Notes: generated by a model from the letters alone, not told the origin. 64,000 bases of DNA from Minisyncoccota bacterium (GCA_035546035.1 DASZXC010000003.1:64479-128478); one strand, 5' to 3'. Positions 5,943 to 29,669 are shown, counted from the stretch's first letter. A program made the numbers and translations.

Positions 5943-6320
5943 ATGAGGGAATTCCAGGAACGCCGCCGGATAAAAAGGCTCCTCCATTCGCGCTATGCGA
6001 TCGCCGCTCTCGCGATCATGTGCCTCTTTCTGGGTCGAGGGGTCTGGAACGTGTATGCCAAATATGAAAAAAGTCGCGACATATCGGCGCGCATGGAGAC
6101 CGAGCTCTCGGCTCTCCAGACCCGCGAGGACAGCCTGAACGGCCAGATAGTCGCATTGGGCACTCCTGAAGGCAAAGAACGGGAGATACGCGACCGATTC
6201 GGCGTCGTGAGGGCGGGGGAAAAGATGGTCGTGCTCGTGGACGAGGCTTCGAATACGGATCAGACGGCGGCCGTGGCGGAGATAAGCTGGTGGGAGAAGC
6301 TCCTAAGCCTTTTCAGATAG
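5943..6320 (+). CDS. septum formation initiator (FtsB/DivIC-like) protein
   Basis: N-terminal TM helix, then coiled-coil segment, then conserved FGVVRAGEKMVVL-type tail. Confidence 0.5.
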   Translation: MREFQERRRIKRLLHSRYAIAALAIMCLFLGRGVWNVYAKYEKSRDISARMETELSALQTREDSLNGQIVALGTPEGKEREIRDRFGVVRAGEKMVVLVDEASNTDQTAAVAEISWWEKLLSLFR

Positions 6321-11218: not shown

Positions 11219-12415
11219 TTATATCCGCGGGCCGAGAGGGAGAGTGCCGACGGCTTTAAGAGGCACGCCGGCGTCTGTAGCTTTATTCCGATTGAAATAT
11301 CCTGCCAGGGCGATCATAAGGGCGTTGTCTGTCGAATGATCGATGCGGGGCAAGAGGAGCTTGATCGAGCATTCCTGCGCGAGCGTCTCGAGCGCCGTCC
11401 GGATATGCCCATTCGCTATGACGCCACCGCCGATGACGAGCGTGCCCGGCGCATAGCCTTCAATGGCTTTTCGCATCTTGGCTATGACGATGTCGGTAAC
11501 GGAGTCTTCGATCTCGCGGGCATATGCGCGGACGAGATCGGGGGTCAGCTCTTTTTCTTTCTTCGCTGCGTATAGAACGGCGGTCTTCAGTCCCGAGAAT
11601 GAGAAATCCAACGAATCGGAATCAAGCATCGGTCTGGGTAGGGGGGTCGCAAGCTTTATGCCTTGCGCGCGAGCCTCCGCGGCGAGCGCGCCGATTCTCG
11701 GTCCGCCCGGGTACGGCAGCTTCAGGACGCGCGCGGTCTTGTCGAAGCATTCGCCGATCGCGTCATCGAGCGTCTCGCCGATGATTTTGTACGAGCCGGC
11801 CTTCTCCATGAGAACTATCTGCGTGTGGCCGCCGGAGATAAGGAGCGAGAGGGCAGGATATGCGATATTTTCTCCGAGAAGCTTGAAATGCGCGCTCGCG
11901 TCGCCTGTATTCTCAATAAGAGCCGCGAGGATATGTCCCTCCATATGGTTGCAGGGCACGATCGGTACGTTCCACAGCATCGAAAGTGCCCGCGCGAAAT
12001 TGATGCCGACCCAAAGCGCGGGCTCAAGTCCAGGACCGATAGTCACCGCGATGCGGTCTATGTCAGGGCGGGCGATGGACGGCACGGATCTCTTGAACGC
12101 TTCGAGAAGCTCCGTCTCGCGCGACAATATTTCCCCGACCGCGGCGGGGATTTTCTGCTCTTTTGTCGTCGCTGCCGCGTTCGAAATCATTCCCGCCTGT
12201 TCGAGCGTCTTCATCAGAATAGGGATCAGGTTTATCTGATGCTCGCGCTTCGCGAGCGTAGGGAAGACGCCGCCATAGGCAGCATGGACGTCTATCTGCG
12301 AATGGACGGTGTTGCCCAGCACATGCGCCGTGCCTTTCGCTTCGTCGAAACGGACGACCGACACTGCCGTCTCGTCGCACGAAGTCTCGATGCCGAGTAC
12401 CGTCAGGGTTTTCAT
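11219..12415 (-). CDS. tsaD: tRNA N6-adenosine threonylcarbamoyltransferase TsaD
   Basis: LGIETSCDETAVS start and HMEGH metal motif. The track ORF extends to 12475 through the tRNA-Val, so the true start is taken at the internal Met (MKTLTVLGIETSCDET). Confidence 0.8.
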   Translation of the reverse strand: MKTLTVLGIETSCDETAVSVVRFDEAKGTAHVLGNTVHSQIDVHAAYGGVFPTLAKREHQINLIPILMKTLEQAGMISNAAATTKEQKIPAAVGEILSRETELLEAFKRSVPSIARPDIDRIAVTIGPGLEPALWVGINFARALSMLWNVPIVPCNHMEGHILAALIENTGDASAHFKLLGENIAYPALSLLISGGHTQIVLMEKAGSYKIIGETLDDAIGECFDKTARVLKLPYPGGPRIGALAAEARAQGIKLATPLPRPMLDSDSLDFSFSGLKTAVLYAAKKEKELTPDLVRAYAREIEDSVTDIVIAKMRKAIEGYAPGTLVIGGGVIANGHIRTALETLAQECSIKLLLPRIDHSTDNALMIALAGYFNRNKATDAGVPLKAVGTLPLGPRI

Positions 12416-12490
12416 GGTGCGCGGTATAGGACTTGAACCTATGACCCTCTCAACGTCAATGAGATGCTCTACCAACTGAGCTAACCGCGC
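12416..12490 (-). tRNA. tRNA-Val (anticodon GAC)
   Basis: Reverse complement folds as GCGCGGT..GCTCAGTTGGTAGAGC..TTGACGT..GGTTCAAGTCC..ACCGCGCACC. Confidence 0.75.
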
Positions 12491-24247: not shown

Positions 24248-25579
24248 ATGACAAAAATACAAACATTAGAGCCATTAGGGACTGCGGCCAAAGTAGCAAG
24301 CCCCATAAGGGTGAAATACTGCCTTTATGCAAGAAAGTCGTCAGAGTCAGAGGAAAGACAGGTTTTGAGCATCGACAGCCAGATCAAGGAAATGCTCCAA
24401 CTGGCTGAAAGAGAGGGGCTTGAGATCGTGAACATGAAGCGTGAATCGCACTCGGCTAAGGAGACTGGGCAACGACCAGTCTTCAACGAAATCGTGGATG
24501 AGATCAAGCAAGGCAAGTTCAATGGGATTTTGACGTGGGCACCTGACCGTATCTCAAGAAACGCAGGCGACCTCGGAAAGATCGTGGACTTGATGGATGC
24601 GGGAAAGCTCCATGAGATACGCACTTTCGGGCAGAGCTTCCGTAACAATCCGAACGAGAAGTTTCTCCTGATGATTCTCGGGTCACAAGCGAAGCTCGAA
24701 AACGATAATCGAGGCATCAATGTGAAGCGAGGGTTGCGAACGCGAGTGGAGATGGGATTGTGGCCAGGAATGGCACCGCTCGGATATTTGAATCAAAAGT
24801 TGATGGACAAGAAATGTCGGATAGTAATTGATCCCGAACGCGCACCGATCGTAAAGCAGATGTTCGAGAAAGTGGCATTTGATCTCTGGTCTGGTCGCAA
24901 GGTATACAACTGGCTCCGATTCGAGCTTAATTTCCACACCAGAGGAAATAGACCACTAACACTCTCTGGTGTGTACCGAATGCTTCAAATGCCGATTTAT
25001 TACGGACCCTTTGAGTATCCGAAGAATAGCGGCAACTGGTATCAAGGAACGCATGAGCCATTGATCACCGAAGAATTATTCAAGAAAGTGCAGGAACAAC
25101 TGAAGCGAGACAAAATCGTGCGCGAGAACAGAGAGTTTGCCTTCACCAAACTCTTCACTTGCGGCATGTGCGGATCGGGCATCACGGCGCAGGAAAAGTA
25201 CAAGGAACTCAAGGACGGCACGAATGCGAAATACGTCTACTACTCCTGCTCGAAAGCGAGAGACAGGAACTGCAAGAACAAATACATTCGTGAGGAAGAA
25301 TTGATTGAGGAATTGTTTAAGATCATCGACAAGCTGAACATGAATGAACTCGGAATGCGGATGAAGCTCGAAGAAGAAATAAAGCGATTCAATCGATTGC
25401 AGAGACTTGCAACTAAGGGCAAACCAAAGATGCAGATCGATGAGGACGATATTGCCACGCGCGAGTATGCGAAATACGTCCTGCGCGAGGGTACGCCGTT
25501 AGAGAAGCGAGGGCTGATGGGGCACCTGAGATCGAGGCTTGTGCTAAATGACAAGAAAATTAGCCTGATTGAAGAATAA
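24248..25579 (+). CDS. large serine recombinase (integrase)
   Basis: N-terminal resolvase catalytic domain (YARKSSESEERQ...SIDSQ, RISRN), recombinase domain, C-terminal zinc ribbon (CGMCG...C..C). Confidence 0.8.
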   Translation: MTKIQTLEPLGTAAKVASPIRVKYCLYARKSSESEERQVLSIDSQIKEMLQLAEREGLEIVNMKRESHSAKETGQRPVFNEIVDEIKQGKFNGILTWAPDRISRNAGDLGKIVDLMDAGKLHEIRTFGQSFRNNPNEKFLLMILGSQAKLENDNRGINVKRGLRTRVEMGLWPGMAPLGYLNQKLMDKKCRIVIDPERAPIVKQMFEKVAFDLWSGRKVYNWLRFELNFHTRGNRPLTLSGVYRMLQMPIYYGPFEYPKNSGNWYQGTHEPLITEELFKKVQEQLKRDKIVRENREFAFTKLFTCGMCGSGITAQEKYKELKDGTNAKYVYYSCSKARDRNCKNKYIREEELIEELFKIIDKLNMNELGMRMKLEEEIKRFNRLQRLATKGKPKMQIDEDDIATREYAKYVLREGTPLEKRGLMGHLRSRLVLNDKKISLIEE

Positions 25580-25602
25580 AAATATAAAAAGAATGAGCCT
25601 CC

Positions 25603-25632
25603 GCAAAAAATTTCGCGGAGGCTCAAGTATTC
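25603..25632. terminator. bidirectional hairpin terminator between recombinase and DGR target gene
   Basis: gagcctccgcg / cgcggaggctc 11-bp stem with A/T-rich loop. Confidence 0.55.
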
Positions 25633-25662
25633 AAGAGGGACAAGCCCTCAAGGGATCAAGAA

Positions 25663-26469
25663 TCACTTCCTGGCAGCCGACAACCCGAGGTTGTCGTGGC
25701 GGTGGTCATCCCAGTAGTAGTTGACGAAGAGCCCGCCGGAATCGAAGAGGCCGACGTAGACACGGCTACCGCCCGAGCCGAGACTGGAAGTCCGAACGTA
25801 AACGCCTTCGAAGAGTCGGACACCACGGACCTCGAAATAGGTCGTGATGAACCAACACATCTCGGCGGCGTTCGGCACCTTCTCGAGCGCGGAGAGAAGC
25901 TTGTTCTGCTCGTTCCACGTCTTGCTGGTCGAGCTCGAAACAGGCGTCTTCTTGATCAGGAGCCAGCCGAAGGACGTCTTGTCCTCGCGGGCGAACTTCT
26001 GGTCGGCATACCACCCACCCGTCTTCAAGTGGAAGTGGGCAGGCTGAATCTCCCGAACGTTGAGCGTGGACATCGCAGTGGGCGGCGCAGGCATGACGGC
26101 GTAGCCGTTTTCCTTGCACCACGTGAGCACGTCCTCCGACGGCAGACTTTCGGCCAGTGCCGTGATCTGCTCGGCGGTGTAAACGATTGCTCTGCGAGCT
26201 TTCATGACTTCTTCCGGCGTGATGAAATCCGCGCCGAGGATGGATTGCGCCAAACCGTAGTCGGGCGCTTTTGCCGAGAAGCGACGGATTCCTTCAGCGA
26301 GATACTCGGCGAAGCCGGGATGCTCGTTCAGGATCTGTGCGCTTTCGTCCTTGAGTCCCGCCTTGTTGTATTGGGCGCGGAACGTTTCGGTAGCTCTCTG
26401 TCCTTTCGGACTGTCTGCGGTTACCAGTGCAGACGTGTTCAATGATTTTTTCATCGACATCATCTCCAT
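25663..26469 (-). CDS. DGR target (variable) protein with C-terminal C-type-lectin-like variable region
   Basis: C-terminus RVYVGLFDSGGLFVNYYWDDHRHDNLGLSAARK corresponds codon-for-codon to the TR-encoded DGNRVNVGNFDSDGLNVNNYWDDNRNDNIGLSAARQ. Differences fall only at TR adenines. Confidence 0.8.
   Translation of the reverse strand: MEMMSMKKSLNTSALVTADSPKGQRATETFRAQYNKAGLKDESAQILNEHPGFAEYLAEGIRRFSAKAPDYGLAQSILGADFITPEEVMKARRAIVYTAEQITALAESLPSEDVLTWCKENGYAVMPAPPTAMSTLNVREIQPAHFHLKTGGWYADQKFAREDKTSFGWLLIKKTPVSSSTSKTWNEQNKLLSALEKVPNAAEMCWFITTYFEVRGVRLFEGVYVRTSSLGSGGSRVYVGLFDSGGLFVNYYWDDHRHDNLGLSAARK
25669..25783 (-). repeat. DGR variable repeat (VR)
   Basis: 115-nt match to the TR with 13 mismatches, all at TR adenines. 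GC-rich IMH-like 3' end gtcggctgccagg. Confidence 0.85.
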
Positions 26470-26910
26470 TTTGCTGATTTACCGAGAACGCTCGGAACGA
26501 CTTGCCTCTGATTGAGACGAGTTTTCTAAGCCCTGAATTAAGGCTCAAAAAGCTCGTCTCAACAGTGATTCTCTATCAAAGAACTACCTAGCTAGTATAG
26601 CAAAGAAATGGCTATTTGTCAATGGTTTTGGCGATCTGTCAATCTCTGCGCTATACTATCAGCATCTTGCTAATGTAGCTTGGATTACGGTTCAAGCTCG
26701 CGAGATATCTCACCTTGAGATATCGCCAGAGTACCAGTGGTTTACGGATCACGGTAGAGCGCGATTAAGGATAGAGAGAACTTCTTGTTCGCTTCTAGAG
26801 GAGATACTTTGAAAGAAGTTGCTCCCGAATAAAATTCAGAGATGGGAGGATATAGACCTGCAAAGGTAGTAAACCTCGATTCTCGGTGACACAGATGGGA
26901 GCGGGCAATA

Positions 26911-27025
26911 TCTCGACTCGGACGGTAACCGTGTCAACGTCGGCAACTTCGATTCCGACGGGCTCAACGTCAACAACTACTGGGATGACAACCGCAACGA
27001 CAACATCGGGTTGTCGGCTGCCAGG
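26911..27025 (+). repeat. DGR template repeat (TR), AAC-codon rich
   Basis: 28 adenines. 13 of them are substituted in the VR and none of the 87 non-A positions differ. Boundaries set where non-A mismatches begin. Confidence 0.85.
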
Positions 27026-27075
27026 CAGTCATAGCTCTATCCAAGGAAACTTCCGCCAAAAAGCGGAAGTTTCTG

Positions 27076-27426
27076 TTAACGATCCTTCGTTGACTTTATC
27101 CACCCTCCGAGCATTCTCCCTATTTCGTCGAGATTGGCTTCGATGATGATATATTTCTTAGCATCAATCGCTTTGACGTCTTTCATCAGGCGAATGCAGA
27201 CTCGCAGGAAATTAAGTTTAACGCTCGTCTTCTCCAAAGTCGGTAACTTCTCGGACTTGGACTGCTGACTTGCGAAAATAATACCTTCCAGTACATCAAT
27301 AAGAAGGCTTTCGCACTTTTGCCAGAGCGTATAGCGGTCTTGCTTGGGTACAGTAAGACGAAGATTATAGAAATCTTTGTAGAGGTCATAACTTTTCTTG
27401 AAAATCGGTATGTCTAAGTCATTCAT
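27076..27426 (-). CDS. avd: DGR accessory variability determinant (Avd, four-helix-bundle protein)
   Basis: 116 aa. C-terminal IIIEANLDEIGRMLGGWIKSTKDR resembles the bAvd tail (LIAEVGRILGSWIARVNRK). Helix-bundle profile. Confidence 0.75.
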   Translation of the reverse strand: MNDLDIPIFKKSYDLYKDFYNLRLTVPKQDRYTLWQKCESLLIDVLEGIIFASQQSKSEKLPTLEKTSVKLNFLRVCIRLMKDVKAIDAKKYIIIEANLDEIGRMLGGWIKSTKDR

Positions 27427-27428
27427 AT

Positions 27429-28523
27429 ATGAAAATTTATAAGGATTTATATTGGTCGATAATTTCTCCCCAATCTCTATTCAGAGCTTGGGAAGTATTT
27501 AAGTCCGACAAAAGGAATAAACCTGACGTTTCCGAGTTTGAACTCCACATCGAGCAGAATATTTTTGATCTGTACCGCGATCTGAAGAATGAGACGTATC
27601 GACACGGGCCATATAAAGGATTCTGGATACACGATCCGAAGATCAGGCGCATACATAAGGCGGTTGTCCGAGATCGGGTGCTCCATCACGCGACCTTTTC
27701 GGTGCTGAACAAAATATTTGAGCCGACTTTTATCAATGACTCGTATTCGTGCCGTATCGGCAAAGGCACTCACAAAGGCGTGGAGAAAGTTGCTGATATG
27801 CTTCGTACAGCGAGCAAGAATAATACCCGCCAATGCTATGCACTCAAATGCGATGTGAGGAAATTCTTTGACTCTGTTGACCACCAAGTGTTGAAAGACA
27901 TCCTTGGTAGGAAAATCAAGGATCAAAAGACTATTTCTCTTCTGAAAGAGGTTATTGAGAGCTACGAGAAAAGCGGCACTTGCGAGAGAGAGAGAGAGAG
28001 AGAGAGTAAAACGCTGCCGCTTTTTACTACAAATACCAACAAAGGGGTGCCCATCGGCAACCTGACTTCGCAGATTTTCGCCAATATTTACATGAATGAG
28101 TTTGACCAGTTCGTTAAGCATGGGCTTCGGGTGAAAAATTACGCGCGTTACACCGACGATTTTATGATTATATCAGAGGACAAAGAATATCTCGAAAATT
28201 TACTGCCAAAATTGCAAGACTTTTTGAGAGAAAAACTGAAACTCGAACTGCATCCGAACAAGATATCTGTTCGTAAATTTCACGAAGGCATAGACTTCCT
28301 CGGGTATGTCATATTCCCGCATTATAAGCTCCTTAGAGCGAAAACCAAAAAGAGGGTTCTGAGAAATGTACGCAAGAAGATGGCTTGCTACCAAAAAGGA
28401 TTAATTCCTGAAAATCACTTACATCAAAGCATGCAGTCATATCTTGGCGTTTTGTCTCACGCGAATACCTACGAGCTGACGGAGAATTTGAAGAATCAGT
28501 ATTGGTTTTGGATGAAAGAGTAA
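27429..28523 (+). CDS. DGR reverse transcriptase
   Basis: RDRVLHHA and SYSCRIGKGTH N-terminal motifs, DGR-specific IGNLTSQ (in place of QGxxxSP), YTDD catalytic motif (RYTDDFMII). Confidence 0.9.
   Translation: MKIYKDLYWSIISPQSLFRAWEVFKSDKRNKPDVSEFELHIEQNIFDLYRDLKNETYRHGPYKGFWIHDPKIRRIHKAVVRDRVLHHATFSVLNKIFEPTFINDSYSCRIGKGTHKGVEKVADMLRTASKNNTRQCYALKCDVRKFFDSVDHQVLKDILGRKIKDQKTISLLKEVIESYEKSGTCERERERESKTLPLFTTNTNKGVPIGNLTSQIFANIYMNEFDQFVKHGLRVKNYARYTDDFMIISEDKEYLENLLPKLQDFLREKLKLELHPNKISVRKFHEGIDFLGYVIFPHYKLLRAKTKKRVLRNVRKKMACYQKGLIPENHLHQSMQSYLGVLSHANTYELTENLKNQYWFWMKE
27984..28006 (+). repeat. (GA)11 dinucleotide microsatellite inside the RT coding sequence (encodes ERERERES)
   Basis: gagagagagagagagagagagag read directly. 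In frame with the RT. Confidence 0.9.
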
Positions 28524-29407: not shown

Positions 29408-29495
29408 GCGGAGAGGGGGAGATTCGAACTCCCGATGAGGTTTCCCCCATACCGCATTTCGAGTGCGGCGCATTCGACCACTCTGCCACCTCTCC
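29408..29495 (-). tRNA. tRNA-Ser (anticodon CGA), long variable arm
   Basis: Reverse complement GGAGAGGTGGCAGAGTGGTCGAATGCGCCGCACTCGAAATGCGG...GGGAGTTCGAATCTCCCCCTCTCCG. Confidence 0.75.
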
Positions 29496-29570
29496 GTGGT
29501 CTCCGAAGCCTCGATATCCTAGCATTTTTTGCCAAAATAGCAAAAAAAAGCTATATTTGAAGCCTACCGC

Positions 29571-29642
29571 GGCCCTATCGTCTAATGGTTAGGACAGGAG
29601 CTTTTCAAGCTCTAAATCGGGGTTCGATTCCCCGTAGGGTCA
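29571..29642 (+). tRNA. tRNA-Glu (anticodon TTC)
   Basis: GGCCCTATCGTCTAATGGTTAGGACAGGAGCTTTTCAAGCTCT...GGTTCGATTCCCCGTAGGGTCA. Confidence 0.7.
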
Positions 29643-29669
29643 CAACGTTCCGCAGGTTATAATAGATGC

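Follow-up and report, generated by a model that had tools for sequence, protein, structure and literature searches.

A complete diversity-generating retroelement of a Candidatus Paceibacterota bacterium and its likely phase-variable reverse transcriptase

Described retroelements and the layout of the locus

Diversity-generating retroelements (DGRs) are known in thousands, and their template repeats (TRs) are rich in AAC codons with adenines at codon positions 1 or 2, which allows recoding without new stop codons. The reverse transcriptases (RTs) of the DGR clade have the motif I/LGxxxSQ in place of QGxxxSP, together with a catalytic YxDD. The prototype, the element of Bordetella phage BPP-1, has the order mtd-avd-TR-brt and lies in a phage tail-fibre locus. 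According to Wu et al. (2018; PMC5758913), 90% of the DGRs of CPR bacteria have the B3 architecture, whose core order is TR-(avd)-RT and in which avd is read from the reverse strand; DGRs of this kind form DGR clade 2 (Roux et al., 2021; PMC8144416).

The window, by which we mean the whole stretch of 64,000 nucleotides that was analysed, contains a complete and intact DGR, which belongs to a Candidatus Paceibacterota (CPR) host and rewrites the tip of one lectin-fold protein. An earlier note on this DNA had proposed a DGR, and the type of the RT, the Avd protein and the adenine-only divergence between the TR and the variable repeat (VR) all support that proposal. The core has exactly the B3 order, with the TR at 26911-27025 (plus strand), avd at 27076-27426 (minus strand) and the RT gene at 27429-28523 (plus strand); the element type is well known and the core is an ordinary member of the known CPR clade. 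Leaving aside a (GA)n tract in the RT gene and a structured RNA domain upstream of the TR, the DGR as a whole is an ordinary, rightly recognised member of that clade. It shares with the surveyed CPR DGRs the host phylum, the antisense avd between TR and RT, a cellular and not viral setting, and a short target with a C-terminal VR and without a membrane segment or known domain. It differs from them in that its target is inverted, in that the (GA)n tract is not mentioned in those surveys, and in that its TR-upstream RNA lies outside Rfam. With the BPP-1 element it has in common the adenine-specific mutagenesis, the AAC-rich TR codons and the GC-rich 3' end common to TR and VR; in contrast to BPP-1, its avd follows the TR in antisense orientation, its target is on the opposite strand, and the element is borne by the chromosome or an island.

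Homologues of the RT (47-92% identity) occur in hundreds of MAGs from Paceibacterota, Nomurabacteria, Berkelbacteria and similar lineages. Of 84 related loci, 57 have a TR/VR pair in which adenines account for 85% or more of the mismatches, and in all of these except L063 the TR lies on the RT strand, ~400-540 nt upstream of the RT. The inversion of the target module relative to the TR is found in 12 of the 57 as well.

The position given for avd in the earlier note was right, its strand having been left unstated. The product (116 aa, HVU06349.1) matches Pfam bAvd (PF22296, 5.9e-17) and bears the NCBI name 'diversity-generating retroelement protein Avd'. The gene runs antisense to TR and RT, with its start codon 2 nt apart from that of the RT; wherever an avd was detected among the related loci (82 of them), its site and strand are identical, and it abuts the RT in 82 of 83 relatives. 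The RT itself (364 aa, HVU06350.1) is encoded by an intact ORF, and re-translation returned every motif that had been reported: IGNLTSQ at residues 209-215 (28053-28073), YTDD at 241-244 (28149-28160) and, in the N-terminal block, RDRVLHHA at 81-88 and SYSCRIGKGTH at 105-115. Profile searches matched it to Pfam RVT_1 (3e-24) and, as the best solved relative, to Bordetella phage bRT (8ub7, E = 5e-44); the next PDB match, a group II intron RT (4e-19), is 25 orders of magnitude behind. The alignment with bRT extends along the whole length of the protein bar one loop, which consists of 27 extra residues (177-203) with an ER repeat.

The VR (25669-25783, minus strand) makes up the last ~38 codons of the target. 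Re-alignment of the 115-nt TR with the reverse complement of the VR needed no gaps and gave the 13 mismatches counted in the earlier note; all 13 fall on the 28 adenines of the TR (hypergeometric p = 7.7e-10) and none of the 87 other positions differs. From TR to VR the substitutions are A>T (five), A>G (four) and A>C (four). The adenines of the TR stand at codon position 1 in 11 cases, at position 2 in 17 and at position 3 in none, and nine codons are AAC. In full, the codon changes are D>G three times, N>Y and N>H twice each, and N>S, N>L, N>F and I>L once each; the changes of N to Y, L, F or H and of D to G had been named before, and N>S and I>L are a minor addition. In an independent repeat search no inverted repeat of the region was longer than the TR/VR pair (122 nt, decaying after 27025, with homology faded by 27032), and the adenine-masked TR pattern occurs in the 64-kb window in these two copies only, with 0 expected by chance. 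The repeats finish in 20 identical, GC-rich nucleotides, TCGGGTTGTCGGCTGCCAGG (27006-27025, plus strand), beyond which the flanks diverge immediately; by its sequence this IMH/IMH*-like end is a plausible IMH element. In DGRs the VR ends in an IMH and the TR in an IMH*, and RNA elements in the flanks steer cis-primed reverse transcription. Neither the adenine-masked pattern nor the IMH-like 20-mer revealed a second VR or remote target in the window, and tblastn of target, RT and Avd across the same 64 kb found a single cassette only.

The target gene (25663-26469, minus strand) is an ORF of 268 aa with the VR at its C-terminal end, as had been claimed; the NCBI protein, HVU06348.1, starts from Met6 and has 263 aa. 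An N-terminal helical region is followed by a domain (residues ~65-268) whose model has a C-type-lectin/FGE fold as in TvpA and Mtd. A relation of the C-terminus to such domains, anticipated in the earlier note, is borne out by the predicted fold and not by profile searches of Pfam and PDB, which came back empty. Over residues ~65-268 the predicted fold resembles the DGR variable proteins TvpA (2y3c), Mtd (1yu0) and TaqVP (5vf4) and also the FGE-like enzymes pFGE (1y4j), EgtB and SenA, whereas sequence similarity to any of them is undetectable. By comparison with solved C-type-lectin-fold proteins, the VR lies in the strands and loops that come last in the domain; it thus sits at the 3' end of a protein-coding gene and within a predicted C-type-lectin fold, as is characteristic of DGRs, whose VRs lie in folds that tolerate variation and are usually of the C-type-lectin kind. 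The target carries no detectable signal peptide, membrane segment or known N-terminal domain.

The (GA)n tract in the reverse transcriptase gene

The SSR contingency loci of Haemophilus, Neisseria and Campylobacter, among them phasevarion methyltransferases, have a perfect short-unit repeat inside the ORF, which is polymorphic in length among near-identical strains and toggles the reading frame of an otherwise conserved gene. The same traits are found in the RT gene described here. It contains a perfect (GA)11G tract (27984-28006, plus strand), which is in frame in this genome (ON), encodes ERERERE within the loop that is absent from bRT, and is the only long simple repeat of the 64-kb window. 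In close relatives the tract is 13, 15, 17, 25 or 29 nt long and most alleles are frameshifted exactly there; across relatives the range is 9 to 39 nt, and tracts of 13, 15 and 25 nt were found in a single lineage. An unbiased scan of the DNA placed the change of frame exactly at the tract in 8 of 8 copies. The 90% cluster of the RT (74 members) includes in-frame forms of 362, 363 and 364 aa along with several truncated forms, and of the 15 members listed 3 have full length and 10 are fragments of the N- or C-terminal part. Every out-of-frame allele that was checked is restored to an ORF of 362-367 aa by one or two GA units, and the out-of-frame alleles of at least six lineages have no other stop or frameshift; many of the out-of-frame copies come from few sample series and are not independent. 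We consider the element likely to be a phase-variable, that is repeat-gated, DGR.

It could be argued that the DGR is genuine and that the tract is a low-complexity insertion tolerated in a surface loop, so that the frameshifted copies would be recent pseudogenes or assembly errors and there would be no switch. As the loop is absent from bRT, length changes in multiples of three would be harmless. CPR genomes are prone to decay, and L065, possibly also L073, has lesions other than tract length: a frameshift from an extra T beside the tract in the former, perhaps a second lesion at the start codon in the latter. However, tracts of 13 and 15 nt pose no difficulty to assembly, and they turn up again in independent samples and studies; the same short lengths in independent assemblies, with flanks otherwise identical, led us to reject a chance origin or an assembly artefact for the variation. 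Pseudogenes as dead ends agree poorly with alleles that are otherwise free of lesions and only one or two units from in-frame. Both halves of the RT have a dN/dS of 0.03-0.11, and downstream of the frameshift, in comparisons between out-of-frame lineages, purifying selection is still visible (dN/dS 0.04-0.11 at dS ~1). Nor would a tolerated insertion predict perfect GA tracts at the same site in RTs with only 49-64% identity to that of the window, together with other repeats at the N- and C-termini of RTs; the related loci, 918 kb in all, contain 31 dinucleotide repeats, of which 30 are in or beside RT genes, at several positions.

The behaviour of the VR in out-of-frame copies bears on both readings. 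The L092-L094 lineage is out of frame and its VR is identical in three samples, which fits a silent OFF state and fits a dead element too; L092-L095, which are the closest relatives out of frame, have a VR that exceeds the TR in length owing to an internal duplication, and ungapped counts of adenine sites are therefore not meaningful there. The metagenome copies L084 and L085, on the other hand, are identical over 3133 nt except for 7 adenine sites of the VR and one GA unit, and thus the VR changed between them although both consensus alleles are out of frame. It is possible that the RT is supplied in trans from another cassette, as could happen in the two-cassette locus L089. On balance we regard the tolerated insertion as the rather unlikely reading, and the switch, taken as a layer of its own, as the reading that we favour with reservation. 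Slightly more guarded still is our view that in a large CPR DGR subclade, to which this element belongs, the RT is a contingency gene whose (GA)n tract toggles hypermutation stochastically and that the independent repeats in RTs of other CPR DGRs, whether N-terminal, C-terminal or mid-gene, are convergent answers to one problem.

In the repeat-gated DGR as we picture it, the supply of RT would be gated by the (GA)n tract, which is hypermutable and lies in a loop that the RT can dispense with, and slippage by one unit would move the gene between in frame and out of frame, the tract of the window with n = 11 being in frame; such a switch would presumably be reversible. It would differ from the known SSR contingency loci in that the gated gene is a hypermutation polymerase and not a surface structure or methyltransferase, so one stochastic switch would control another diversity generator. 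The repeat unit is also a dinucleotide in the middle of the gene, and the host is an uncultivated CPR bacterium. A literature search on repeat-gated or phase-variable DGR RTs and on phase variation in CPR returned nothing relevant.

If this is true, DGR activity would be under a simple control, heritable and reversible, by way of a repeat that switches the RT on and off, and natural ON and OFF alleles would be directly readable from metagenomes. Hence the costs and benefits of targeted hypermutation would become testable, by relating the phase of the tract to VR diversity across samples and time. Most cells would keep a silent, stable VR and a minority would diversify, which amounts to a second-order switch of evolvability. 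Surveys that count only DGRs with an unbroken RT ORF will overlook or mis-score the majority of copies of the subclade, because the representative of the cluster of the window's RT is a fragment of 198 aa.

Diversification in relatives and presumed activity of the element

The differences between VR and TR prove at least one past retrohoming event, not current activity; that the DGR is active in this genome at present is what we infer. At the population level the VR was checked in sequences of relatives. The locus L088 has a TR identical to that of the window over 121 nt, and all 14 mismatches of its own VR are at adenine sites. Among 164 homologues of the target, variability peaks at the positions that derive from AAC and GAC codons of the TR. 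Judged by their sequences, L084/L085 and L088 point to recent DGR activity in relatives, which we count in favour of a working DGR, and we hold with high confidence that the element is of the functional type and works as described.

The element could instead be an intact but silent relic in this genome, with the 13 differences left by an old retrohoming event. This would agree with the single VR sequence at hand for the genome and with an island that resembles a degraded mobile element, having a weak terminase-like match only; some DGRs are classed as 'inactive' by SNV enrichment (Roux et al., 2021; PMC8144416). Still, every part is intact and in frame, and decay would have added mismatches at other bases, of which TR and VR have none. 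Moreover, among close relatives whose TR is the same or almost the same the VR alleles differ at adenine sites, and purifying or structural constraint acts on RT, Avd and RNA. Thus it is improbable that the element is a relic. A reading without any DGR, in which the RT would be that of a group II intron, retron or defence system and a chance or recombinational duplication would account for the inverted repeat, may call on the 'retron-type reverse transcriptase' label given to homologues by JGI pipelines and on the group II intron and retron-type RTs that are next best in PDB, but we consider it refuted with near certainty by the adenine-only mismatches (p = 8e-10), the IGxxxSQ motif and Avd, the position of bRT, whose E-value is 25 orders of magnitude better than that of any other structural relative, the lack of any Rfam intron or retron RNA and the same TR/VR logic in 57 related loci.

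The template RNA and the surroundings of the cassette

Two promoter-like elements, which are consensus matches only, stand back to back at 26594-26657: TTGACA-17-TATACT on the minus strand (11 of 12 matches), facing the target, and TTGGCG-18-TATACT on the plus strand, facing the TR RNA. In all aligned relatives a -10-like hexamer precedes the conserved start of the RNA by ~7 nt. Between this start and the TR lies a structured 5' domain (26664-26910, plus strand) of 245 nt and eight helices, which nhmmer located immediately before the TR at 47 further sites as well. Compensatory changes support 54 of its 64 predicted pairs, 94.5% of cells are paired compared with 38-49% in slid controls, and its score was reached by none of 500 shuffles. 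No Rfam family matched the RNA flanking the TR at gathering or E-value thresholds; the RT-1 to RT-19 motifs, said to go back to Weinberg in 2017 and assumed to be contained in Rfam, would then not match it either. The 5' domain would be an undescribed RNA family.

A single-stranded block of this domain, AGGATAGAGAGAACTT (26768-26783, plus strand), includes the positions 26769-26776 that are complementary to CTCTATCC (27035-27042) in the 3' flank of the TR (27026-27074, plus strand), and this long-range duplex is kept via compensatory changes in several lineages. The flank also contains a 12-bp stem-loop (27045-27074, plus strand; z = -3.6) that abuts the avd stop codon, and in most related loci a hairpin of 10-17 bp and unrelated sequence stands in the same place. 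In other DGRs a cPRT-stop duplex and an Avd-binding stem-loop have been described, which the features of this flank match; by this analogy the hairpin is read as a stem-loop of the Avd-binding type, and it may act in termination as well. A plain bidirectional terminator was not supported by the terminator scan, since there is no clear T run, and for the same reason the 3' end of the TR RNA is uncertain. The Bordetella DGR likewise has its TR between mutually pairing RNA segments followed by a stem-loop, although there the upstream RNA is the 3' end of avd and the downstream spacer is ~140 nt, whereas here the upstream RNA is a dedicated non-coding domain and the spacer is ~50 nt. The 5' domain appears to take the scaffold role that the 3' end of avd and the spacer have in the Bordetella element.

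The promoter at ~26630-26657 would give rise to a non-coding RNA of ~410 nt, made up of the structured 5' domain, the TR, the 3' flank pairing back to the 5' domain, and the stem-loop. Avd and RT would bind this RNA, and the RT would copy the TR into cDNA with misincorporation opposite adenines. The cDNA would then replace the VR, that is the 3' end of the target on the opposite strand, and could recode up to 19 adenine-containing codons (nine of them AAC) on what would be the ligand-binding face of the C-type-lectin-fold domain. In this scheme we infer the start and end of transcription, the RNA-protein contacts and the mechanism of priming. The 5' domain and the duplex that it forms with the 3' flank of the TR add a second case, from a phylogenetically distant lineage, to the RNA-guided priming model that was solved for the Bordetella phage DGR, and they define the minimal RNA for reconstitution of CPR DGRs in protein engineering.

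The DGR is carried by an island of lower GC content (0.47 against 0.57 in the flanks), whose mobility gene is probably the large serine recombinase at 24248-25579 (plus strand; Pfam Resolvase, Recombinase and Zn_ribbon_recom), convergent with the target. No att-type repeat emerged from a search for common words of at least 12 nt among tRNA-Val, tRNA-Ser and the recombinase flanks. In at least 18 related loci a homologue of the recombinase is found no more than 6 kb from the RT. The target gene ends in an intrinsic terminator (25594-25625, minus strand) with a 14-bp stem and a T run (MFE -38.7 kcal/mol, z = -6.5), and a small GC hairpin (25635-25649) stands between it and the VR. In the loci L006, L007 and L026, where the target has direct orientation, it is followed by the same terminator flank.

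The retroelement and its clade

The earlier note had described a diversity-generating retroelement (DGR) in which the two repeats diverge only at adenines, and our realignment reproduces this. The template repeat (TR, 26911-27025, plus strand) and the reverse complement of 25669-25783, the variable repeat (VR) at the C-terminal end of the 268-aa target protein (25663-26469, minus strand), align over 115 nt without gaps and with 13 mismatches. All 13 fall on the 28 adenines of the plus-strand copy and none of the 87 other positions is changed; the probability that 13 random mismatches would all hit adenines is 7.7e-10. Read in the target's frame, all 28 TR adenines fall on codon position 1 or 2, and nine of the codons are AAC. 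The TR/VR pair is the longest inverted repeat of the region according to an independent repeat search, and the TR pattern with masked adenines has just two matches within the 64-kb window, namely the TR and the VR.

The ORFs and motifs quoted in the note were all found, and the DGR interpretation is supported. The avd ORF (27076-27426) is likewise present; what had been left unstated is that it lies on the minus strand, antisense to the TR and to the reverse transcriptase (RT) gene. The RT (27429-28523, plus strand) matches the Pfam profile RVT_1, and its closest solved relative by a wide margin is bRT, the DGR enzyme of the Bordetella phage (8ub7, E = 5e-44), followed by a group II intron RT (4e-19). 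The alignment with bRT spans the whole protein apart from residues 177-203, which form an insertion relative to bRT. Avd matches Pfam bAvd at 5.9e-17. The three proteins are deposited at NCBI as HVU06348.1 (target), HVU06349.1 (Avd, which already carries a DGR protein name) and HVU06350.1 (RT). The start codons of avd and the RT gene are two bases apart on opposite strands, so each gene must be transcribed from within the coding region of the other. Promoter-like matches inside these coding regions, at 27128-27155 (plus strand) and 27820-27847 (minus strand), would result in overlapping antisense avd and RT transcripts.

For comparison we used 83 related loci from genome assemblies together with the contigs bearing the closest RT; these loci and contigs, from other CPR (Patescibacteria) genomes or metagenomes, carry L numbers below. 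In all 82 related loci with a detectable avd, this gene is antisense and lies between TR and RT. A TR/VR pair was detectable in 57 loci, with at least 85% of the mismatches at adenines, and in 56 of them the TR is on the RT strand, 400-540 nt upstream of the RT, L063 being the sole exception. This architecture is the B3 type, 'TR-(avd)-RT', reported for 90% of CPR DGRs (Wu et al., 2018, PMC5758913), and the clade corresponds to 'clade 2', which is restricted to Patescibacteria, cellular, and characterized by targets without recognizable domains (Roux et al., 2021, PMC8144416). The window belongs to a minority, 12 of the 57 loci, whose target module has the opposite orientation to the TR; the 3' flank and terminator of its target are the same as in direct-orientation relatives. 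As a DGR, it is a new member of a well-described clade.

A covarying RNA around the template repeat

Two features lift the finding above routine: a repeat in the RT gene, treated in the next section, and the RNA flanking the TR, which is strongly covarying and absent from Rfam, a search of which returned no matching family. A structured 5' domain of 245 nt with eight helices (26664-26910, plus strand) directly precedes the TR and starts about 7 nt past a -10-like TATACT. The RNA is predicted to start near 26664 and to end near 27075. The related loci hold 47 further conserved copies of the domain, each directly before the TR. The consensus from an alignment of 35 sequences has 64 base pairs across the eight helices, and 54 of these pairs show compensatory double changes. 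In this alignment 94.5% of the cells are paired, compared to 38-49% when partners are shifted by one to three columns; the covariation score of 0.64, versus 0.11-0.15, is reached by none of 500 shuffles.

The segment CTCTATCC (27035-27042), which lies just 3' of the TR, is complementary to an unpaired conserved block of the 5' domain, AGGATAGAG (26768-26776). This long-range duplex is preserved by compensatory changes in several lineages: the partners are GGATGGAG/CTCCATCC in L012 and AGATAGAG/CTCTATCT in L047, and in L050, L057, L018 and L019 the pairing is kept with unrelated sequences. The duplex segment is followed by a 12-bp stem-loop (27045-27074, plus strand) that abuts the avd stop codon, and most related loci have a hairpin of 10-17 bp, unrelated in sequence, in its place.

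In the Bordetella DGR the TR has to be flanked by pairing upstream and downstream RNA (the 'cPRT stop' duplex), after which comes an Avd-binding stem-loop, and such elements were predicted in 207 of 278 Avd-containing DGRs, CPR members included (Handa et al.). The window RNA similarly places its TR between pairing flanks with a stem-loop after them, and by this analogy its duplex and stem-loop appear to match the RNA logic solved for Bordetella. The window RNA differs in that a large, dedicated non-coding domain serves as its upstream element, and in that avd, in antisense, leaves room for a downstream spacer of just about 50 nt.

Ahead of this RNA, promoter-like elements facing the target and the TR are laid out symmetrically (26594-26657). 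Duplicated TGTCAA motifs lie between their -10 boxes, which together make up an inverted repeat (AGTATAGC ... GCTATACT), and this symmetry could represent an operator for coordinated control.

A GA tract in the reverse transcriptase gene

The only long simple repeat within the window, (GA)11G (27984-28006, plus strand), lies inside the RT ORF and encodes ERERERE in a loop that is absent from bRT. Relatives with the same flanks differ in the length of this tract, which is 13 nt in L064, L073, L084, L087 and L091, 15 nt in L085 and L088, 25 nt in L090 and 29 nt in L065. Between these flanks, tracts of 11, 17, 23 and 29 nt keep the gene in frame, and in all of the listed alleles the RT frame breaks exactly at the tract; in L065 the frameshift is due to an extra T directly upstream of the tract and not to tract length. 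Eight metagenome copies were retrieved with a DNA pattern taken solely from the right flank, a search that does not favor broken genes, and all eight are out of frame.

The 90%-identity protein cluster of the window RT has 74 members and is represented by a 198-aa N-terminal fragment that occurs on many contigs. The 15 cluster members listed comprise three full-length proteins (364, 362 and 363 aa) that differ in the number of ER repeats, five N-terminal fragments that enter the tract and finish in another reading frame, five C-terminal fragments, a 92-aa N-terminal piece and a TR-RT chimera, P0576.

Adding one or two GA units to each allele examined restores an ORF of 362-367 aa, and no other lesions were found in these alleles except for the extra T of L065 and, in L073, a possible problem at the start codon. 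There the RT start region (5998-6010) reads ATGAAATTT where ATGAAAATTT is expected, which places the canonical ATG out of frame with the RT body, in addition to the out-of-frame 13-nt tract; the alteration may be a second lesion or mark an alternative start. Both halves of the RT have a dN/dS of 0.03-0.11, and the low ratio holds downstream of the frameshift between out-of-frame alleles of different lineages with dS of about 1. Judged from these substitutions, the pattern is unlike that of long-dead genes.

Repeats of this kind also recur. Perfect GA tracts occupy the same site in RTs that are just 49-64% identical to that of the window (L017, L021, L026, L056, L059), and across 918 kb of related loci there are 31 dinucleotide repeats of at least six units, all but one of which (30) are situated in or beside RT genes. 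Some of them occupy other positions, namely (GA)11 in the RT C-terminal tail of L023 (7049-7070), (GA)9 about 40 nt beyond the RT stop codon of L027 (7082-7099), and (GA)9 or (GT)9 in the RT N-terminal extensions of L069 (2192-2209) and L076 (997-1014).

The tract polymorphism, the frame behaviour, the selective signature and the recurrence, taken together, lead us to favor, with some reserve, a phase-variable hypermutation system as the most likely reading, in which the GA tract, in frame in the window, would switch the RT on and off in the manner of a contingency (phase-variation) locus. Literature searches for DGR RTs gated by a repeat, and for phase variation in CPR bacteria, yielded no paper.

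Evidence of DGR activity is drawn from relatives of the window. L088 has the window's TR, with no difference over 121 nt; between this TR and the L088 VR there are 14 differing sites, all of them adenines. L084 and L085 come from separate metagenome samples of a single series (Ga0163149-55), and over 3133 nt covering target, TR, avd and RT they differ only by seven VR substitutions, all at TR-adenine positions, and by one GA unit in the RT. Across 164 target homologues, column entropy is highest at the positions of TR AAC and GAC codons. The VR differs between L084 and L085 although both consensus RT alleles are out of frame. This fits intermittent periods in which the RT is in frame, as the phase-variable reading would have it; it is also possible that an RT supplied in trans accounts for the change.

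Possible mobility and module reassortment

The cassette lies within a low-GC stretch (about 13.0-29.4 kb; GC 0.47 versus 0.57) flanked by tRNA-Val (12415-12490) and tRNA-Ser/Glu (29408-29643) genes. The stretch encodes two N6/N4 DNA methyltransferases, a weak terminase-like ORF, a copper-type P-ATPase with a CsoR-like repressor and, adjoining the target, a large serine recombinase (24248-25579). At least 18 related CPR loci have a homologue of the recombinase no more than 6 kb from the RT, which suggests that these DGRs travel on integrative elements; attachment repeats for the low-GC island were looked for and none were found.

The cassette itself is a mosaic in composition, with host-like GC in the target (0.584) and TR (0.574) versus 0.416 in avd and 0.420 in the RT. 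L084 has an RT 85% identical to that of the window and a target only 40% identical, while L088, L073 and L089 retain the window's target type at 85-88%. From these identities, the RT/avd and target modules appear to reassort among relatives.

L089 (Ga0302319_10109813) is a 3.9-kb contig on which two convergent DGR cassettes flank one target gene. Its RT1 is of the GA-tract type and frameshifted, and all 11 differences between TR1 and the VR are at A sites; RT2 has 67% identity with the RT of the window across the 175 residues present on the contig, and TR2 differs from the VR by 28 mismatches, only 16 of which are at A. The chimera P0576 (219 aa, on 942-nt ENA contigs) joins a spurious TR-spanning ORF (MTQ..GNISTRTVTVSTSATSIP..TSGCR) directly to the RT from 'RESKTLPLFTTNTNK' on, so that the junction with the 3' end of the TR lies at the GA tract, and neither avd nor the first RT half is included; a deletion, template switching or misassembly could explain it. 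The closest out-of-frame relatives, L092-L095 from the GROS21 metagenomes, have a tract of 17 nt and a VR that is longer than the TR owing to an internal duplication (for example L092 2355-2518), the same in three samples and different in the fourth. L093 carries two identical 281-aa target copies, and an IS200/IS605-type Y1 transposase gene adjoins the target region in L092 and lies at the edge of L093.
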